Shown piece by piece: positions 1-5,821 of a stretch of DNA of 5,821 bases. Both the position numbers and the translations under genes were made by a program. The stretch's first letter is position 1, and each line of letters begins with the position of its first letter. Origin of the DNA: a virus; the IMG/VR virus record IMGVR_UViG_3300045988_013492, positions 1 to 5,821 of that record, one strand, 5' to 3'. The notes beneath the pieces were generated by a model, which saw nothing but the letters and a program-made list of their open reading frames with translations, had not been told where the DNA came from and ran no database searches.

Positions 1-95
1 ATTTTTTTTGTTACATACCCTGCAACATATCTATATGTTTCTGGAACTGCTTGCGCAATCTGTATTTGACCCATTCCCCACAGGTTTGCTAGCCA
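1..95. repeat. Terminal redundancy of a linearised circular genome. Positions 1-95 are identical to 5727-5821, giving a unit genome of 5,726 nt.
   Basis: Direct comparison: the string a + 8 t + gttacataccctgcaacatatctatatgtttctggaactgcttgcgcaatctgtatttgacccattccccacaggtttgctagcca occurs at 1-95 and again at 5727-5821, with offset 5726. Confidence 0.95.
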
Positions 96-662
96 TTTGC
101 TGTTATAGTATCCGTTGTGGTGAATCTTGTATAGATTTTCTAGGTCTGTTGGTTTCCAGCCATATAGAATCATGTGGTAATGCGGTCTTGCTGTCTGCTC
201 TCCGTACTCACCCGCCACAAAATAGCGTAGCTTGCCCCTGTAAGCCTTTCTGAGACGTTTTAAGAATTTCTGAATATCTTCATACAGTAAAATTTGTACG
301 CTTTCTGGGCGCTTCTCTCCCGGCTTCCACGTGTACTGTACTTTGCGCATGATCTCACCTGTTTTTACTATCATGCCCGGTACATGGTCATCATCATAAG
401 TTAGCGTGATAAACCAGACTTCTTCTTTTGGATAGTCTTGTGCTTCCAATTCGATGCGCGTTGTCCAGTCCTCTCGTTGTCTTATTCTGCATCCAATACA
501 TTGCCCGCATGGAATTAACATGACTTTCGGATTATACATCAAATCTTCATACTTTAGCTGTTTCCCGCTTAACTCAGAAAAGCGGGCGAGTGAATATACC
601 CGCCCGCTCTGTTCTTTATCGTCCGGGTTGTACAGCCTTATTAGTGGCTTGTAGCAACTCAT
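1..662 (-). CDS. Replication initiation protein VP4 (HUH rolling-circle Rep), 5' portion. ATG at 662..660. The ORF runs off the window start and continues at 5726..5369 across the circular junction. The full gene is 1020 nt (339 aa).
   Basis: My own translation of complement 662->1 is [96 protein letters not shown]...[13 protein letters not shown]...[11 protein letters not shown]. It joins in frame to the track ORF 5369..5800 ([30 protein letters not shown]...). It carries the gokushovirus VP4 hallmarks: the CGxCxxCR zinc-finger-like N-terminal motif, FITLTY (motif 1), HYHMILY (motif 2, HuHuuu) and YVAGYVTKK (motif 3, catalytic Tyr). The start overlaps the VP2 stop as ATGA, and AGGTGA lies 9 nt upstream. 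Confidence 0.93.
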
Positions 663-1543
663 TTCAAATAATCACCTGGCTTTCTTTTTGCTCCATAGTC
701 TCCTGTTTTATTCTGCATTAGGTTGTCTGTTTTGTGTCCTACTTTGGTATTGCCTTTTGCTTTCTTCCCCATTTTATTTGTGATGTCTTCAATTGTTTCG
801 CTTGTTTTGTTATCGATATTCGTTAGTGCTTTCATTAAGCCGTAGGGAGTTAGATGCGTTTCAGCTAGCATTTGATTCCAGCTTTGAGAGGCGTTATACC
901 ATTCTGATTTACTCCAGCTTGAGCTACTGTATGAGTTTGGAACAAAACCACTGCTTCTGCTAATTCCTAGTGCGCTACTGCTTGCTAGTCCCATACTTGC
1001 TCCGCTGATTGTTCCTGCTGATCCTCCCGGTGTGCTTGCTCCGCCGTTTGCAAATGCCAGAATTGGGTTTATGCCTGCTTTTTTCATGTCTGCAACTGTT
1101 CTCTGGTATGCTGTGTTGCTCATTCTTTCTTGGAACTGCCTGTTTGCCAGTGCTTCTGCGCTGTTGTAATTCATTGCGGCTGTGTTTTCGATGTGGTTAT
1201 AAATACCTTGCTGAATTGCCGATAGGGTGTTATAGCCCATCTGTTCTAACATGCTTTTCTTGTTGTATTTTTGCTGTGCTATTCCTTCTGCGCTTTGGTA
1301 TCCGTATGCTTGCTGTAAATATTTTGCAATTTGTTCGTCATTTGTTCCGGATTGACTTCCGCTTTGGGATGCTCCGCCGCCTTGACCTACACTCCCTCCG
1401 CTACTTTGAGTTGTACCTTCGTTTCCCCAACCGCCAAAACTGCCTGTAACGTTTTTTACGGCGTTTGTTATGCTTCCTATACTTGTTGCAACATTTCCAA
1501 GTAAGTTTGCTCCTTTTATAATTGCTCCCCATGGAATTGCCAT
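659..1543 (-). CDS. Minor capsid / DNA pilot protein VP2 (294 aa).
   Basis: Track ORF. The protein is Gly/Ser/Gln-rich and carries the highly conserved gokushovirus VP2 block [20 protein letters not shown]. The C-terminus is basic. The TGA stop overlaps the Rep ATG as ATGA. ATG is at 1543. Confidence 0.88.
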
Positions 1544-1551
1544 TTGAAAAT

Positions 1552-1580
1552 AGCCCGGTTTTCCCGGGCTCTCCTTTCTT
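1552..1580 (-). promoter_or_regulatory. Split ribosome-binding site and hairpin upstream of VP2. AAGGAG (1576..1571) abuts a 7-bp GC-rich hairpin (1570..1552: AGCCCGG-GAAAA-CCGGGCT) that is followed by ATTTTCAA and then the ATG. It is a candidate partial intrinsic terminator or attenuator after VP1.
   Basis: Seen in sequence. Plus 1552-1570 is agcccgg ttttc ccgggct, a perfect inverted repeat with 6 of 7 GC pairs. On the coding strand it is followed by ATTTT. The only Shine-Dalgarno for VP2 lies 27 nt upstream of the ATG, which shortens to 8 nt when the stem is formed. Confidence 0.45.
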
Positions 1581-1619
1581 TCATTTTTTGAAGTTGGTAG
1601 ATCTGTTGTTCTTCATTTT

Positions 1620-3353
1620 TTATAGTTTTTCCAGACCCGGCACGCTATACAGCGGCATACAGCGTGTTGTTTTGTTCATTACTCGGATTGCGCCGAAAAA
1701 CTGTGGTTCATTCTGTACGATGAGTGTCCGTGCGATTTCGTTTTTACCTTCTTTCATCCAATCTTGACTGAGTGTCGGCACGGTTTCATAGTTGTCTGCA
1801 TAGTGCCAGAAGTCGAGCGTTCCTGGTACGTTACTGCGCATTTTGCCGCTTACACGGTTTGGCTTCATTCTATAGTCTGCCCAAGCTTCCTGATATCCGA
1901 ATGTTTCATCATCTGTGCTTGTACCTGTACACATGATTTCGCGTTTTTTGACAGGCTGTTCGCCCAGATTTGCAAACTGTGGAAAGTAGTAGTCCAGTCG
2001 GTCTGTTCGGCTCCAGAATCTTTCAAGGCCTTGCTGATAGCTGCGGTCGTGACGTACACACATGACACCGATAATAAACCCGTGTTCTTCAAAACTCTTT
2101 GTGAAGCTGCTCTCGTTGATAGGTGTGATCGACATTGCACCCGTTTCTCCGATAGGCGTTCCATTGTCTGCTTCTTGACCGCTTGTCTGTACGATCTGGT
2201 TCATGTTGACGTGGTAGCGTCCACCACCCAAATATTCCGGAATCTGAACAGTTTTGTCACTGATGCTTACGCCAAACAGTGCTCGCACCTGTTCGCGGTA
2301 GCGGCTACCGCCACGTGCCAGCGCTTCGTAGTAGTGTTGTACTGCGAAGGCCTGGCGTAACTGGTTGATTGTTGCTGCTTCGATGTTGCTCATGTCTGTT
2401 CCCAACCATGCGTCAAAGAAGTTTGCATCGTCTTGGCTCATTGTTTGGATTCGCTGTCCGTCTACTACCGGCGCTGTGTTTCCGTTGTTGTTTTTGTTTA
2501 CGCTGAATTTCGTTCCTTGGTTTGTGAATGAGATGTTTGTGTGATTTACTATTCCGGTGTTATATTCGTTGTTGAAAAATCCTGTTCCAATTTTTCTGTT
2601 GCTTAGATTGCTTTCGCTGTAGGCTCTTAACGGTGCATTTCCGGTGAGTGCAATTGTCACTTCCGGTCCTCGCTGAGGATACGGCAGACAGGACGAGAAA
2701 TAATCATGGAATCGGTTTACTGGTAAGCATCGTCCTCCGTGTACAGCATATAGGAGGATTTGTTCTGTTTCTTCGTTGACTATGTCCTTGTAATCGATGT
2801 CTTCATCGCCTGTTTTCATTACTGCCGGGTTTCCTACGTTTTGATCTCGGAAAAATTCGTTCCAGATTTTTACATATGCTCTTATCGGCAGCGCGTTTAT
2901 CTCGACCCTTCTATTTTGATGGTTTGCGAACATTCTTGTTGGTACTCCCATATAGTCTAGGATTGAGGCTTCATATGGTACGATTGTTACTTCATCTGCT
3001 TGGGTTTTGATAATGAGTTTGGGCACTTTATAGGTTTTTGTAGGCTTCCACGGCACTTCATCTGCTTCGCCCATGAAGTGTTTGAAGTTGTCCCACAGGA
3101 TACGGTTTGGACAGAAGAAATAGTAAAAGTCGATGTATGCATCGTCCATTACAGGATATTTTGGCGTTGTCATTCGGATGATTGCTGCCGTGTCTACGCT
3201 GAATGTATCACCCGGTAGAACCTCATCAACGTAAAATGGAATCAGTTTGCCTGCATCGAAGGTTGTGAGAATGTTCTGATCTCGTTTGAAACGTGTTCGG
3301 CTTACGTGTGTTTCTGGTACTTGGTTGAAGTGCCGTTCATTATTCCGATTCAT
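1620..3353 (-). CDS. Major capsid protein VP1 (577 aa), Microviridae F-protein family.
   Basis: Track ORF. The N-terminus is FNQV...TTFDAGKLIPFYVDEVLPGDTF, the canonical gokushovirus VP1 start. Conserved blocks INQLRQAFAVQHYYEALARGGSRYREQVRALFGV and C-terminal YSVPGL are present. AAGGAG (3366..3361) sits 7 nt upstream of ATG 3353. An Asn-rich insertion at residues ~236-316 corresponds to the gokushovirus surface 'mushroom' loop. Confidence 0.95.
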   Translation of the reverse strand: MNRNNERHFNQVPETHVSRTRFKRDQNILTTFDAGKLIPFYVDEVLPGDTFSVDTAAIIRMTTPKYPVMDDAYIDFYYFFCPNRILWDNFKHFMGEADEVPWKPTKTYKVPKLIIKTQADEVTIVPYEASILDYMGVPTRMFANHQNRRVEINALPIRAYVKIWNEFFRDQNVGNPAVMKTGDEDIDYKDIVNEETEQILLYAVHGGRCLPVNRFHDYFSSCLPYPQRGPEVTIALTGNAPLRAYSESNLSNRKIGTGFFNNEYNTGIVNHTNISFTNQGTKFSVNKNNNGNTAPVVDGQRIQTMSQDDANFFDAWLGTDMSNIEAATINQLRQAFAVQHYYEALARGGSRYREQVRALFGVSISDKTVQIPEYLGGGRYHVNMNQIVQTSGQEADNGTPIGETGAMSITPINESSFTKSFEEHGFIIGVMCVRHDRSYQQGLERFWSRTDRLDYYFPQFANLGEQPVKKREIMCTGTSTDDETFGYQEAWADYRMKPNRVSGKMRSNVPGTLDFWHYADNYETVPTLSQDWMKEGKNEIARTLIVQNEPQFFGAIRVMNKTTRCMPLYSVPGLEKL

Positions 3354-3741
3354 TGTTTTTCTCCTTTTCCTTTGTCTCGGTCTCGTTTGCGGCCTCTTCC
3401 TGCATTCTCTGCAGTTCCATTGCCTTGACCTTTGCTGTTGCCATCATGGCGTGATACTCGTGAATGTTTGTAGGCCATTCGGTAATATCTATGGTCTCGT
3501 TTGTTTTTGCGCTGTCTACCAGACTTTTCGCAAATTCCGGGTCAAAGCTGGCTTTTCGGACGATGTTTTTGATGTCACATTCATCTGCGTAGCTTTCAAT
3601 TTCGCTCTGAATGTCGATTGGTTCGGTTTCAATCAATTCTTCGTTGCCTTTTTCGTCTTTGCCCCAGACGTACTGTTTGCGCATTTTTTCGCCCGGATTT
3701 GAAAAGAAGGGCTCTCGCCCTTCCTCATATCGTTTATTCAT
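3340..3741 (-). CDS. Internal scaffolding protein VP3-like (133 aa), starting at ATG 3741. The track's 193-aa version begins at a TTG at 3921 and is probably an over-extension.
   Basis: Protein from ATG 3741: MNKRYEEGREPFFSNPGEKMRKQYVWGKDEKGNEELIETEPIDIQSEIESYADECDIKNIVRKASFDPEF...ELQRMQEEAANETETKEKEKNNESE. The block IQSxxESYADECDIKNIV resembles the Chlamydia-phage scaffold (Chlamy_scaf) signature. The tail is acidic. ATG 3741 overlaps the TAA of the upstream 80-aa ORF as ATGAATAA. I checked that the 3921 'start' of the 193-aa model is TTG. The gene's 3' end overlaps the VP1 start by 14 nt. Confidence 0.65.
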   Translation of the reverse strand: MNKRYEEGREPFFSNPGEKMRKQYVWGKDEKGNEELIETEPIDIQSEIESYADECDIKNIVRKASFDPEFAKSLVDSAKTNETIDITEWPTNIHEYHAMMATAKVKAMELQRMQEEAANETETKEKEKNNESE

Positions 3742-3976
3742 GCGGTTTGCCCTCCCAGACCTTATCCGGATCGATGCTCTTAAACTCTCCGGTTTCATCG
3801 TTGAAGTTTGCGATGTGGTAGCCCTTGTAGTCCTCGGGGCTCTGTCCAAGGAACGTTTTATCGTCTTTTGCCATAATTTCGCACATCCGTGCAAACGTTT
3901 GGTCGCTCTTGCTTTCACCAATGTAGCAGTAGCTCTTTGCTACGCTGTCGTAGATGCCATAGTAATTGTGAATCAT
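3734..3976 (-). CDS. Hypothetical small protein (80 aa, acidic).
   Basis: Track ORF with ATG at 3976. AAGGAG (3990..3985) lies 8 nt upstream. Its stop is coupled to the VP3-like start. I recognise no family. It lies in the same frame region as the spurious TTG-extended 193-aa model. Confidence 0.6.
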   Translation of the reverse strand: MIHNYYGIYDSVAKSYCYIGESKSDQTFARMCEIMAKDDKTFLGQSPEDYKGYHIANFNDETGEFKSIDPDKVWEGKPHE

Positions 3977-4074
3977 TTTCTTTTCTCCTTTACAGTCTGA
4001 TGCCGCCCCTCATGGGTTTCTGGCTGAGGTTGATACTCTTCGTTTTTCGTGCCGTTGTGTTGAACATTCGCTTG

Positions 4075-4320
4075 TCAGTGCGTACCGGCATGCGCTGTCT
4101 GTGCTTCATCTGTGTACTCCCTTCTGAGTAGCTCTAGCTCGATGTCGTTGGCCCATTTCTTCATAACCCAGATTCGGTCAATGGTTTTTTTGGCATCTTC
4201 CAGCTTGGATACTTTTTTTATCATCTTGTATCCGGCTTCTATTTGCTTGTATAGCCTTTCGGTTTCTTGCCTGAGCGTTTCTTCGGTCTGGTCTCTCACA
4301 TTCCATGTTTTGTGTAGCAT
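4075..4320 (-). CDS. Hypothetical small protein (81 aa), predicted helical and Lys/Glu-rich.
   Basis: Track ORF with ATG at 4320. AAGGAG (4331..4326) lies 6 nt upstream and overlaps the stop of the upstream 34-aa ORF. The sequence MLHKTWNVRDQTEETLRQETERLYKQIEAGYKMIKK... matches no family I recognise. Confidence 0.6.
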   Translation of the reverse strand: MLHKTWNVRDQTEETLRQETERLYKQIEAGYKMIKKVSKLEDAKKTIDRIWVMKKWANDIELELLRREYTDEAQTAHAGTH

Positions 4321-4323
4321 GGT

Positions 4324-4428
4324 TTACTCCTTTTCCTTCAGGATGTGGTAAATTTCGTCCAGCTTCTCGAGGACATTTTTAATTAGCTGGATTGCTTCCC
4401 GCAGGTCTTTCACCTTAATCAATGCCAT
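4324..4428 (-). CDS. Possible micro-ORF (34 aa): MALIKVKDLREAIQLIKNVLEKLDEIYHILKEKE.
   Basis: Not in the track because it is too short. The ATG at 4428 lies 3 nt after the peptidase TAA (TAACCAATG). GGGGG sits ~8 nt upstream. Its TAA is embedded in the next gene's Shine-Dalgarno. It fills the only otherwise unassigned coding-strand gap in a tightly packed genome. It has an amphipathic helix pattern. Confidence 0.3.
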   Translation of the reverse strand: MALIKVKDLREAIQLIKNVLEKLDEIYHILKEKE

Positions 4429-4431
4429 TGG

Positions 4432-4815
4432 TTATACCCCCTTTCTGTATCGTTCTTCACGCACATCAATGTGTACAAAGTTTGTGTATTTGATTACGCC
4501 GCCTTGTTCCATGATGCTATCTGCGTATTTTGCAACTTCTTGACTTGAGTGTCCTTTTACTACAATGTCTGCTGCCATTCCTTTGCAGTGCATTGAGTTT
4601 GGTGCTCCGTTTACTTTGCTGTTCCAGCTCGGTGTTCTGTATCCGCTGTTAATTTTTACCGGTGCTTTGAAGTGTTCTCTTATTGTTTCTAGGATTGTTA
4701 ATAGCTCTTTGCAGATTAGCAGTTTTTTGTTTCCGTCTTTGCATTGAAACTCTTTTGCTTTGAAGTGTTGGCTTAGTTTCCCGTAGTCTGCATTGATGTA
4801 TACGATATTTTTCAT
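4432..4815 (-). CDS. Peptidase M15 (Peptidase_M15_3-type zinc D,D- or L,D-peptidase), a putative endolysin of 127 aa starting at ATG 4815. The track's 156-aa model starting at 4902 is probably over-extended.
   Basis: SGYRTPSWNSKVNGAPNSMHCKGMAADI (SxHxxGxAxD, the zinc ligand motif) and the C-terminal FVHIDVRE are the PF08291 signatures. AAGGAG (4826..4821) lies 5 nt upstream of ATG 4815. A sigma70-like promoter sits inside the supposed N-terminal extension. Confidence 0.85.
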   Translation of the reverse strand: MKNIVYINADYGKLSQHFKAKEFQCKDGNKKLLICKELLTILETIREHFKAPVKINSGYRTPSWNSKVNGAPNSMHCKGMAADIVVKGHSSQEVAKYADSIMEQGGVIKYTNFVHIDVREERYRKGV

Positions 4816-4860
4816 GGCTGTCTCCTTTCTTTTGTATTGTGCTCTTTGTGCTTTGTCTAT

Positions 4861-4889
4861 ATTATAGGTTTTGTCAAGCCTTTTTTCAA
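4861..4889 (-). promoter_or_regulatory. Sigma70-type promoter for the peptidase / small-ORF transcript. -35 TTGAAA (4889..4884), 17-nt spacer, -10 TATAAT (4866..4861).
   Basis: I read the '-' strand directly: ATTGAAA AAAGGCTTGACAAAACC TATAAT. The -10 is a perfect consensus, the -35 matches 5 of 6, and the spacer is the optimal 17 nt. The predicted transcription start near 4854 gives a ~38-nt leader containing the AAGGAG. Confidence 0.5.
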
Positions 4890-4980
4890 TATTTGTAATC
4901 ATTTTGTAATATTATCTATGCAAACTGTCAAGGTTGCCGTAGGCAATTTTGACATTTTGCGTAGATGCCCGCGGCAGGCG

Positions 4981-5145
4981 TTTTCAACATTTTCCACATA
5001 GTTTTCAACATTTCAACATTGTTAAACTTTAACACAACAGAGTGTTTCAACATTTCAACAAGTTTTCAACAAATCTTTCAACATTCTTTTTGGTGCTTTT
5101 TCTTCGTACCAACGTAAAGAAAAAGCACTTTTCAACTTTTCCACA
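4981..5145 (+). repeat. Array of ten head-to-tail 9-mer repeats TTTTC(A/C)ACA. Two are exact DnaA-box consensus TTTTCCACA (4990-4998 and 5137-5145). Eight are TTTTCAACA or TTTCAACA variants (4981, 5002, 5011, 5045, 5053, 5063, 5076, 5129). They are arranged as doublets around a perfect dyad, TGTTAAA-C-TTTAACA (5020-5034).
   Basis: Seen in sequence. Copy spacing of 8-12 bp is roughly helical phasing. The region is non-coding on both strands. Confidence 0.8.
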
Positions 5146-5150
5146 TACTC

Positions 5151-5165
5151 TACTACTACTACTAC
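5151..5165. repeat. (TAC)5 trinucleotide microsatellite.
   Basis: tactactactactac, seen directly, in a non-coding region. Confidence 0.9.
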
Positions 5166-5249
5166 AACAAGTTATATAATAAAGGCGAAGTGTTATCCCT
5201 TGAAGCGAAGCGAATAGGGATTATAGGGTAGAACGTACTCTCCATTTTA

Positions 5250-5290
5250 CCGTGCGCGTGTACGTGCGTTTCGCGCGTGCGCGTGCGCGG
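5250..5290. repeat. GC-rich alternating pyrimidine/purine tract, (CG/TG)n, with three copies of GTGCGCG. It can form a 19-bp hairpin (5250-5268 with 5272-5290, TTT loop) made of 14 Watson-Crick pairs plus 5 G.T wobbles. It is a candidate Z-DNA former or origin / single-strand initiation hairpin.
   Basis: I mapped the pairs base by base. Every non-Watson-Crick position is a T opposite a G. Both arms are perfect Py-Pu alternations of 18 nt. The tract sits in an otherwise AT-rich genome. Confidence 0.6.
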
Positions 5291-5309
5291 TCTAACGCCT
5301 TAAGCACAC

Positions 5310-5356
5310 TCTTAAATCAATAAAAGCCCAGTGCCTTACTTGATAGGTACTGGGCT
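5310..5356 (-). terminator. Rho-independent terminator downstream of Rep. The stem is AGCCCAGT / ACTGGGCT (5356..5349 with 5332..5325) with a 16-nt loop. On the coding strand it is followed by TTTATTGATTT.
   Basis: A perfect 8-bp inverted repeat, seen directly. A T-rich run follows immediately on the '-' strand, 13 nt after the Rep stop at 5369. Confidence 0.5.
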
Positions 5357-5368
5357 AGGTGACACTGA

Positions 5369-5821
5369 TTACAAAATACCACGTTTTTTCGTTTGTTTTT
5401 TGGTTACACGCTCTTTGGTCTCTAAGATGGTTTTATAGTCTTGACCCTCTAACTGTAATCTTTTTTGCCCCATTGCGTTTTTCTGTCGGTTTCGCTTGAT
5501 TCTCCATAGTCTTTCCGGGTTTTCTGCTTCCATCTGTTTTTCATAGTACCTTGGAATTTGTGCTTGTTTCCCGTTGGTACACTGAATGTAGCCTTGCTTC
5601 CAGATTTCTGCCTTGTGCTCTTGATAGTAGTGATCTCCGAGACCTGGTTTTAAACTCATGCATGCAAAAGGTTTTGTTTGCCCTAGTTCATAGTATTGAT
5701 TTGCTTTCTTGCCGTCTATTTCGTACATTTTTTTTGTTACATACCCTGCAACATATCTATATGTTTCTGGAACTGCTTGCGCAATCTGTATTTGACCCAT
5801 TCCCCACAGGTTTGCTAGCCA
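5369..5821 (-). CDS. Replication initiation protein VP4, 3' portion (C-terminal 119 aa, plus 31 codons duplicated from positions 3-95). The stop is at 5371..5369.
   Basis: Track ORF 5369..5800. It extends upstream in frame to the window end and is continuous with complement(1..662) once the 5726-nt circularity is applied. The 5726 offset preserves the reading frame. The C-terminus is basic (KRNRQKNAMGQKR...KKQTKKRGIL). Confidence 0.9.
   Translation of the reverse strand, partial: WLANLWGMGQIQIAQAVPETYRYVAGYVTKKMYEIDGKKANQYYELGQTKPFACMSLKPGLGDHYYQEHKAEIWKQGYIQCTNGKQAQIPRYYEKQMEAENPERLWRIKRNRQKNAMGQKRLQLEGQDYKTILETKERVTKKQTKKRGIL

Follow-up and report, generated by a model that had tools for sequence, protein, structure and literature searches.

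The DNA analyzed here (the window) comprises the 5,821 nucleotides (nt) at positions 1 to 5,821 of the viral record IMGVR_UViG_3300045988_013492 of IMG/VR, and it is the complete circular genome, of ~5710 nt, of a gokushovirus (Microviridae), cut with a terminal redundancy of 111 nt (positions 1-111 repeat 5711-5821). The virus comes from the gut, and in GenBank it is closest to gokushoviruses from human and pig guts, with which parts of the genome share ~76-82% nucleotide identity. All the genes are carried on the minus strand, to which the coordinates given below refer unless otherwise indicated. The subject of this work is the junction between two of these genes. The upstream cistron is the open reading frame (ORF) for the major capsid protein VP1 (577 aa; 1620-3353, with its TAA stop at 1622-1620), which matches the Pfam family Phage_F with E = 3.6e-134, and the downstream one encodes the DNA-pilot protein VP2 (294 aa; 659-1543, ATG at 1543-1541), residues 7-291 of which match positions 6-287 of the profile PHROG 8742, 'pilot protein for DNA ejection' (E = 6e-112). 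These identities agree with those proposed in a preliminary description of this DNA, which had also pointed out a GC hairpin filling the space between a distant Shine-Dalgarno sequence (SD) and the start codon of VP2. An alternative start for VP2 was considered and rejected, as there is no in-frame ATG, GTG, or TTG upstream and 1543 is the first start after the upstream in-frame stop in the ORF table of the window; none was found either in the examined relatives in which VP2 aligns from its N-terminus, and the PHROG profile aligns from residue 7.

Following the direction of transcription, the junction contains an extended SD, AGAAAGGAG (1571-1579, recognized by its complementarity to 16S rRNA, with the core AAGGAG at 1576-1571), which directly abuts the hairpin AGCCCGG-GAAAA-CCGGGCU (1552-1570; 7 bp, 5-nt loop, -14.1 kcal/mol), and this is followed by the U-rich tail AUUUUCAA (1544-1551), which separates the stem from the VP2 ATG and is a candidate both for a terminator U-tract and for an SD-AUG spacer. 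The stem arms are AGCCCGG (1570-1564) and CCGGGCT (1558-1552), with the GAAAA loop at 1563-1559, so that the stem is perfect over its 7 bp as previously described, but it is made of six G-C pairs plus one A-U pair. The UUUU run that had been noted after the stem is also present, although it is preceded by an A and the tail has only 4 U in 8 nt (5 U if the outer A-U pair opens). AGAAAGGAG is the sole SD in the VP2 upstream region; its core lies 27 nt from the VP2 AUG, confirming the distance first reported, and looping out the hairpin would reduce this spacing to 8 nt, the value anticipated from the folded stem. The other eight genes do have their SDs close to the ATG, but at 6-10 nt rather than 5-9 nt, and their cores are not all AAGGAG as had been stated (AGGAG, GGGGG, GGGAG, GGAGG, and AGGTG are found). 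The hairpin is present in both the minimum free energy and the centroid structures calculated with RNAfold (local z = -2.8), and no other perfect stem in the genome reaches 7 bp with six or more G-C pairs and a loop of 3-8 nt; when the whole genome was dinucleotide-shuffled, such a stem appeared anywhere in just 3% of the shuffles. A simple terminator scan of the window called the palindrome on the non-coding strand only, the coding strand being missed because the U-run of the window is short. The Rfam covariance models gave no match overlapping 1541-1580 at E ≤ 1.

Relatives were collected in VP2- and VP1-based searches of IMG/VR, which yielded 159 loci (contigs named L plus a number are IMG/VR loci or genome-embedded relatives). 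The SD-hairpin-AUG module was present in 100 distinct contigs besides the window, with VP1 identities of ~44-91% and 64 distinct element sequences, and every locus from these searches that covers the junction and has a VP1 identity of at least ~43% contains it. In this clade the order is always VP1 stop, GAAAGGAGG, 0-3 nt, GC stem, AUUUU..., and VP2 AUG; most relatives carry GAAAGGAGG itself as SD, while ten have GGGGG and seven GGAG. Stems are of 7-9 bp and loops of 3-7 nt, the whole hairpin measuring 19-21 nt, with energies between -12.4 and -19.3 kcal/mol. The loop is mostly GAAA, but CAAAA, UUU, AUAA, and others are also found, neither its sequence nor its length being kept. A pattern scan of IMG/VR for the module retrieved at least 120 contigs; among the matches listed, the contigs were of ~4-11 kb, nearly all of them 4-6 kb, with one match apiece. 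The module is also present in ~24 GenBank records of gut gokushoviruses, where it carries no annotated feature. Distant gokushoviruses have at this junction mostly a plain TAAGGAG-N6-13-ATG or an overlapping TAATG.

The stem is maintained by compensatory changes among the relatives, in which pairs of arms such as AGCCCGGA/UCCGGGCU, AGCCGGGA/UCCCGGCU, AGGCCGGA/UCCGGCCU, AGCCCGCA/UGCGGGCU, AGCCCCG/CGGGGCU, and GCCUGGG/CCCAGGC are found, the stem core running through the series GCCCGG/CCGGGC, GCCGGG/CCCGGC, GGCCGG/CCGGCC, GCCCGC/GCGGGC, GCCCCG/CGGGGC, and GCCUGG/CCAGGC. In a MAFFT alignment of 65 distinct rows (A1), 94.8% of the cells are paired and both-sided changes occur at five of the eight pairs. 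The covariation score of A1 was 0.264, compared to 0.074 for shuffles (none of 500 reached 0.264), and slid controls did not exceed 0.049. The covariance model derived from this alignment gave one match per genome, only at the VP1-VP2 junction (50.9 bits and E = 7e-7 in the window), and no match in the more distant gokushoviruses or in the genome-embedded relatives (L161-L167 included). Because the module is conserved in the clade, its stem shows compensatory changes, and it is absent from distant gokushoviruses, we conclude that the hairpin is real, that it is under selection, and that it is a hallmark of one large gut clade. Absence of the hairpin from relatives, which the preliminary description had named as an outcome that would speak against it, was therefore not what we found.

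Insertions into the intergenic region respect the module. The VP1 stop lies 4-8 nt before the GGAG core in ~95% of the genomes, and this distance is 4-5 nt in the closest relatives of the window, while the window itself has here a specific A-rich insertion of ~40 nt (1580-1619) that stays outside the conserved module, between the VP1 stop and the SD. We found no exact match to this insertion in IMG/VR, no local duplication from which it could derive, and no donor among the loci. Six lineages (the window, L024, L029, L096, L100, and L106) have acquired different insertions of ~16-100 nt here, invariably in the stretch from the VP1 stop to the SD; the SD-hairpin-AUG unit itself is never interrupted. 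The insertion of the window carries an 11-codon mini-ORF (ATG at 1616 to TGA at 1581), the stop of which overlaps another ATG (ATGA, 1584-1581). Where insertions are present, some mini-ORFs run across the hairpin (L029 and L100), but these were discarded as chance, as they are not conserved across the clade.

The geometry of the module is that of a split ribosome-binding site (RBS). In all 101 genomes, the window included, over 15 nt separate the SD from the start codon and there is no SD at the canonical distance; no genome has an SD between hairpin and AUG, and the tail joining the stem to the AUG is composed of A and U only. The linear SD-AUG spacing ranges from 27 to 37 nt in the 101 genomes, the gap between SD and stem is 0-3 nt (mode 1) in all of them, and the tail measures 6-11 nt (mode 8). 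When the hairpin is looped out the spacing is 8-14 nt, with a mode of 9, and it does not exceed 11 nt in 96 of the 101 genomes, so that the linear distance varies because the size of the hairpin varies whereas the looped-out distance is kept. In a split RBS, the hairpin is expected to lie wholly between SD and AUG, to leave ~5-11 nt when looped out, and to be preserved by compensatory change among relatives, and the three features are found here, the last one in A1. Furthermore, the SD itself is anomalous. Its complementarity to 16S rRNA is unusually long (9-10 nt), and its duplex with the 16S 3' end has a clade mean of -15.7 kcal/mol (-12.7 kcal/mol in the window), compared to -8.9 kcal/mol for the other genes, even though the best SD of each of those genes had been picked for the comparison. 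The distant SD of VP2 is thus the strongest SD in the genome.

The same hairpin also resembles an intrinsic terminator. Both in the window and in the clade the stem is G+C-rich and falls within ~5-14 bp, with a loop of 3-8 nt, and stem, loop, and energy are typical of this class of signals in the clade. The tail following it is equally anomalous. When the 8 nt preceding the AUG were compared between VP2 and 134 other ORFs led by an SD in these genomes, the VP2 tails contained 59% T, with at least four T in 95% and TTTT in 85% of them, whereas the spacers of the other ORFs were A-rich (14% T, at least four T in 3%, and TTTT in 0.7%). The U-richness is therefore specific to the site after the hairpin, since other spacers in these phages are not U-rich. 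The tails of the relatives are mostly AUUUUUAA, with 5-6 U of 8, compared to 4 of 8 in the window and to the ~7-9 nt U-tract expected of an intrinsic terminator, and in L011 the module hairpin is the sole terminator-like site on the coding strand. Moreover, in L062 and in L165 (Intestinirhabdus) a hairpin plus U-tract after VP1 is followed by an ordinary SD and then by the VP2 ATG; as these unrelated lineages have a canonical terminator, a post-capsid terminator recurs in gokushoviruses. The one of L165, a prophage in an Intestinirhabdus alba scaffold, reads AGGCCTC-tccg-GAGGCCT TTTTGTT (8582-8626). Finally, the order of the genes, with VP3 and VP1 (needed in bulk) upstream of the hairpin and VP2 and VP4 (needed in small amounts) downstream, fits a control of dosage.

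We favor, with about as much confidence as doubt, the reading in which this junction would be a dual-function module, with a leaky intrinsic terminator inside a split RBS that serves VP2. According to this, a single polycistronic sense transcript would carry a four-part RNA element, in which an SD of great strength is followed by the GC hairpin of 19-21 nt, by ~8 nt of U-rich tail, and finally by the AUG of VP2. Hairpin and tail would act together as a leaky terminator and as a protector of the 3' end of the VP1 mRNA, so that VP2 and VP4 would receive less message than the upstream VP3 and VP1. In the RNA that is read through, the hairpin would refold and loop out ~20 nt, bringing the distant SD to an effective 8 nt from the AUG (mode 9 in the relatives), where a 30S subunit could then use it, and the U-tract would double as the SD-AUG spacer, the optimal length being ~8 nt for both functions. 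Since a terminated transcript would extend to the AUG at most, it could not yield a truncated VP2. We infer from sequence, then, both that RNA polymerase would terminate at the hairpin and that initiation at VP2 would need the folded stem. These are the two readings that the preliminary description had offered, a partial terminator after VP1 and a structure-dependent RBS, holding that they did not exclude each other. Independent anomalies (the U-rich tail and the strength of the SD) support the two of them, and each is sustained in part, the junction-specific tail and the strong sole SD abutting the stem being set against the weak U-tract of the window and the rival roles discussed below.

Several observations weigh against this dual role. 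The U-tract of the window, AUUUUCAA, is weak and stands at the weak end of the clade, and the first position after the stem is an A in nearly all genomes, which would lower the efficiency of termination. The U runs are degraded in a few relatives (AAAUUUAU, AUAUUAUU, and ACUUUAGA) that still keep the hairpin, so termination cannot be the sole constraint on the stem. A single, very large gut data set (IMG/VR 3300045988) supplied most of the contigs. Covariation cannot tell an RNA from the packaged sense-strand single-stranded DNA (ssDNA), and only ~5 G-U pairs were counted, about as many as there are A-C or U-U losses at the outermost pair, small counts that do not separate RNA from DNA or one strand from the other. 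In addition, the behavior of the RNA polymerase and ribosomes of the host cannot be assumed. There is also a more elaborate version of the dual module that we consider doubtful, in which one 20-nt fold would be a decision point coupling three processes, ending the transcript before the VP2 AUG when it forms behind RNA polymerase or, after read-through, becoming an obligatory part of the VP2 RBS, with VP1 ribosomes being handed over across the hairpin. Because the VP1 stop lies so close to the GGAG core, a ribosome terminating on VP1 could be captured by the strong SD and passed to the VP2 AUG, which would make the junction a bacterial counterpart of the tethered termination-reinitiation of caliciviruses (termination upstream ribosome-binding site, TURBS).

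Either half of the dual module could in principle act alone. A split RBS with no useful termination, in which the hairpin would bring the SD to the VP2 AUG and perhaps tune translation while the U-run served as a flexible spacer or paired weakly with the purines of the SD, is possible although we think it unlikely. It would account for all the evidence on geometry and SD strength, for the retention of the hairpin where the U-run has decayed (L103, L106, and L134), and for the failure of the U-tract of the window in a simple terminator scan of the coding strand; moreover, in RNAfold structures GGAGG and UUUUU often form G-U pairs that lengthen the stem. However, this extra helix is worth just ~1-2 kcal/mol, and such a site would not explain why U-richness is near-invariant and unique to the VP2 spacer in genomes whose other spacers are A-rich, nor the canonical terminator found at the same junction in other gokushovirus lineages. 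An element acting only on termination or mRNA stability appears slightly less probable again. Here the terminator-like features would be taken at face value and GAAAGGAGG would be a 30S anchor, similar to a stabilizer SD (STAB-SD), against 5'-to-3' decay of the VP2-VP4 RNA, with VP2 starting without an SD on an A/U-rich leader, or else by re-initiation. Non-initiating STAB-SDs with extended 16S complementarity are known in Gram-positive bacteria (PMC4113751), the VP2 SD shows this extended complementarity to the 16S 3' end, and the nearest genome-embedded relatives are in contigs of Clostridia and Peptostreptococcaceae metagenome-assembled genomes (MAGs). But a STAB-SD is an SD-like sequence that does not initiate and has the proper RBS downstream of it, and no second SD precedes VP2 in the 101 genomes; all other genes use an SD at 6-10 nt, which indicates an SD-dependent host, yet VP2 would be left without any. 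Besides, neither a stabilizer nor a terminator demands the fixed gap between SD and stem or the fixed length of the tail, and the insertions never part the SD from the hairpin. A role as a stabilizer of the 3' or the 5' end of mRNA is a further possible function.

The hairpin might also work in DNA. Its folding in the packaged sense-strand ssDNA, for complementary-strand priming of the type of the phiX174 PriA site or the G4 origin, or for packaging, seems quite improbable to us. Known microvirus complementary-strand origins are much larger than the VP1-VP2 hairpin. The stem does fold with DNA parameters too (z = -2.8), and post-capsid hairpins have been considered candidate minus-strand origins in Microviridae (PMC9865509). 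A second clade (L064-L080, gokushoviruses of 4.3 kb) has its own covarying hairpin, without a U-tract, after VP1; it is a 12-bp stem located in the first ~60 nt after the VP1 stop (GGTTGTGTGATC/GATCGCATAACC vs GGTTGTCGAGTT/AACTCGATAACC, with G-U pairs), and it is followed by CCCCGAAGGGAAAAACAATG. Origins of this class would nevertheless be expected to have a conserved recognition sequence or a larger structure with several hairpins, instead of the single hairpin of 19-21 nt found here, whose unconserved loop of 3-7 nt offers no sequence-specific recognition; the fixed place between SD and AUG and the U-tract are features of RNA, and the genome has a better candidate for an origin in a 458-nt non-coding region (see below). 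Scarcely credible, in our opinion, is that the palindrome is fortuitous or that it is a protein-binding site in duplex DNA, of the recombinase or restriction type, with no folded-strand role. A perfect palindrome with motifs of the CCCGGG/CCGG type would suit such a site, but the arms covary and their sequence is not conserved, the spacer between them varies from 3 to 7 nt, and a stem that is so rare in shuffled genomes has kept its position in at least 100 genomes. A protein operator of the MS2-coat type, a duplex DNA-binding site, and an XerCD/dif-like site were rejected on similar grounds, as the sequences of loop and arms are not conserved and only pairing is kept.

The dual module that we favor can be compared with several known systems. 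The split, or 'accommodated', RBSs of the T4 genes 25 and 38 were reportedly worked out by Nivinskas and co-workers in 1999 and by Malys and Nivinskas in 2009. In these sites, which were demonstrated experimentally and are restricted to a clade, looping of a hairpin shortens the SD-AUG distance from 22 to 5 nt (gene 38) and from 27 to 11 nt (gene 25; PMC3014915). As in gene 25, the SD of VP2 in the window is 27 nt from the AUG; as in both T4 genes, SD and AUG flank a complete stable hairpin, with a looped-out spacing of 8-9 nt here, and the element is kept within one phage clade and absent from more distant phages. Unlike the T4 sites, it is found in the unrelated ssDNA Microviridae, it has a conserved U-tract and an unusually long SD, and it is placed directly after the major capsid gene; no sequence similarity is apparent on inspection, which involved no formal comparison. 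In thrS of Escherichia coli, too, ribosomes are documented to accommodate a hairpin that stays folded inside a split site (PMC3936740). With respect to termination, phiX174 has the leaky Rho-independent terminators TJ, TF, TG, and TH, with weak hairpins in TF and TG (PMC3335065). These belong to the same virus family and are likewise intercistronic, following structural genes (F being the homologue of VP1), with a hairpin and then U's in a polycistronic unit, and a graded drop of mRNA downstream together with stabilization of the mRNA upstream would be expected in both cases. However, in phiX174 the downstream SD follows the terminator, whereas here the SD precedes the hairpin and the start codon comes right after the U-tract; the hairpin also looks more stable than those of TF and TG (-12 to -19 kcal/mol with RNAfold), although the scoring methods differ and the values are not directly comparable. 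We presume that the VP1-VP2 module is homologous neither to the T4 split RBSs nor to the phiX174 terminators.

Regarding the extended SD, a 5' mRNA stabilizer of this kind, the STAB-SD of cry3A from Bacillus thuringiensis, was reportedly described by Agaisse and Lereclus in 1996, and GAAAGGAGG is what we take to be its sequence. The SD of VP2 resembles it in having an extended complementarity to the 16S 3' end and in lying too far upstream for a normal SD (PMC4113751), but cry3A has a separate RBS and VP2 has none, and the SD is here locked beside a hairpin able to bring it to the AUG. The module also recalls the F-G intergenic origin hairpins of phiX174 and G4 and the post-Cap hairpins of small microviruses in being conserved, covarying, and downstream of a capsid gene (PMC9865509); compared with the origin hairpins of phiX174 and G4 it is much smaller, its loop is unconserved, and signals for transcription and translation surround it. 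In the literature on terminators, hairpins, and intergenic regions of gokushoviruses and Microviridae we found no account of a VP1-VP2 element, and in the literature searched there was no described case of a terminator hairpin located between an SD and its start codon, nor is one known to us. The components have precedents, and it is their combination, a putative terminator hairpin within an RBS, that appears to be new.

The rest of the genome is organized as a string of genes in which, following the order of transcription, an M15 peptidase (ATG at 4815) is followed by a 34-aa ORF (4428), an 81-aa ORF (4320), a 39-aa basic protein (4109), ORF5 (3976), and the scaffold protein VP3 (3741), the last one directly before VP1, while the replication protein VP4 (ATG at 662, spanning the cut, with its stop at 5369) closes the series after VP2. 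The stop codon of VP2 overlaps the start codon of VP4 in the sequence ATGA (659-662), which suggests that translation of VP4 may be coupled to that of VP2, in which case a limit on VP2 translation would limit VP4 too. The best sigma-70-like promoter match, TTGAAA-17-TATAAT (11/12; 4861-4889), which is a match to the consensus only, lies upstream of the first gene of the string. Directly after the VP4 stop, a second terminator-like hairpin is predicted by folding (AGCCCAGUACC...GGCACUGGGCU and then UUUUAUUGAUUU; 5321-5355), which begins with AGCCC and ends with GGGCU, as the VP1-VP2 hairpin does, and it probably marks the end of the transcription unit. The non-coding region at 4903-5360 (458 nt), which has repeats and palindromes, is the likely origin and promoter region. 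Between 4982 and 5083 its plus strand carries seven copies of TTTCAACA, where chance would give 0.42; a palindrome of 13 bp occupies 4926-4954, and a GC/GT-rich alternating run is found at ~5251-5290.

With respect to the host, a search of genome contigs with the VP1 sequence alone gave no match, and an alignment-based VP1 search of these contigs retrieved distant relatives only (37-46% VP1 identity). The nearest of these genome-embedded relatives (41-46%) are L161, in a 317-kb contig of a Peptostreptococcaceae MAG, which is possibly a prophage, and L163 and L164, from Clostridia MAGs. The contigs of the last two (12.8 and 7.5 kb) may be binned phage genomes and not integrated copies. The module was absent from the VP1-VP2 junctions of L161-L166, all six of which were read. 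These relatives hint at Firmicutes as hosts of related lineages and, because strong SDs are used uniformly, the host of the virus itself is probably SD-dependent and Firmicutes-like rather than a member of the Bacteroidota.

Gut gokushoviruses are among the most abundant phages of the human and animal gut and almost none of them has been cultured. To our knowledge, no mechanism by which they adjust the proportions of their proteins has been described. The module described in this work is a conserved, single-copy, covarying, and widespread regulatory element, and it provides a concrete handle on gene expression in these abundant uncultured phages. It has a practical consequence too, as gene finders and RBS models that expect an SD within ~15 nt will mis-score the VP2 starts of this clade. 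If both functions hold, the junction would be a natural terminator built into an RBS, with the U-tract doubling as spacer, and it would constitute, after those of T4 genes 25 and 38, a third, independently evolved, and far more widespread hairpin-bridged RBS.

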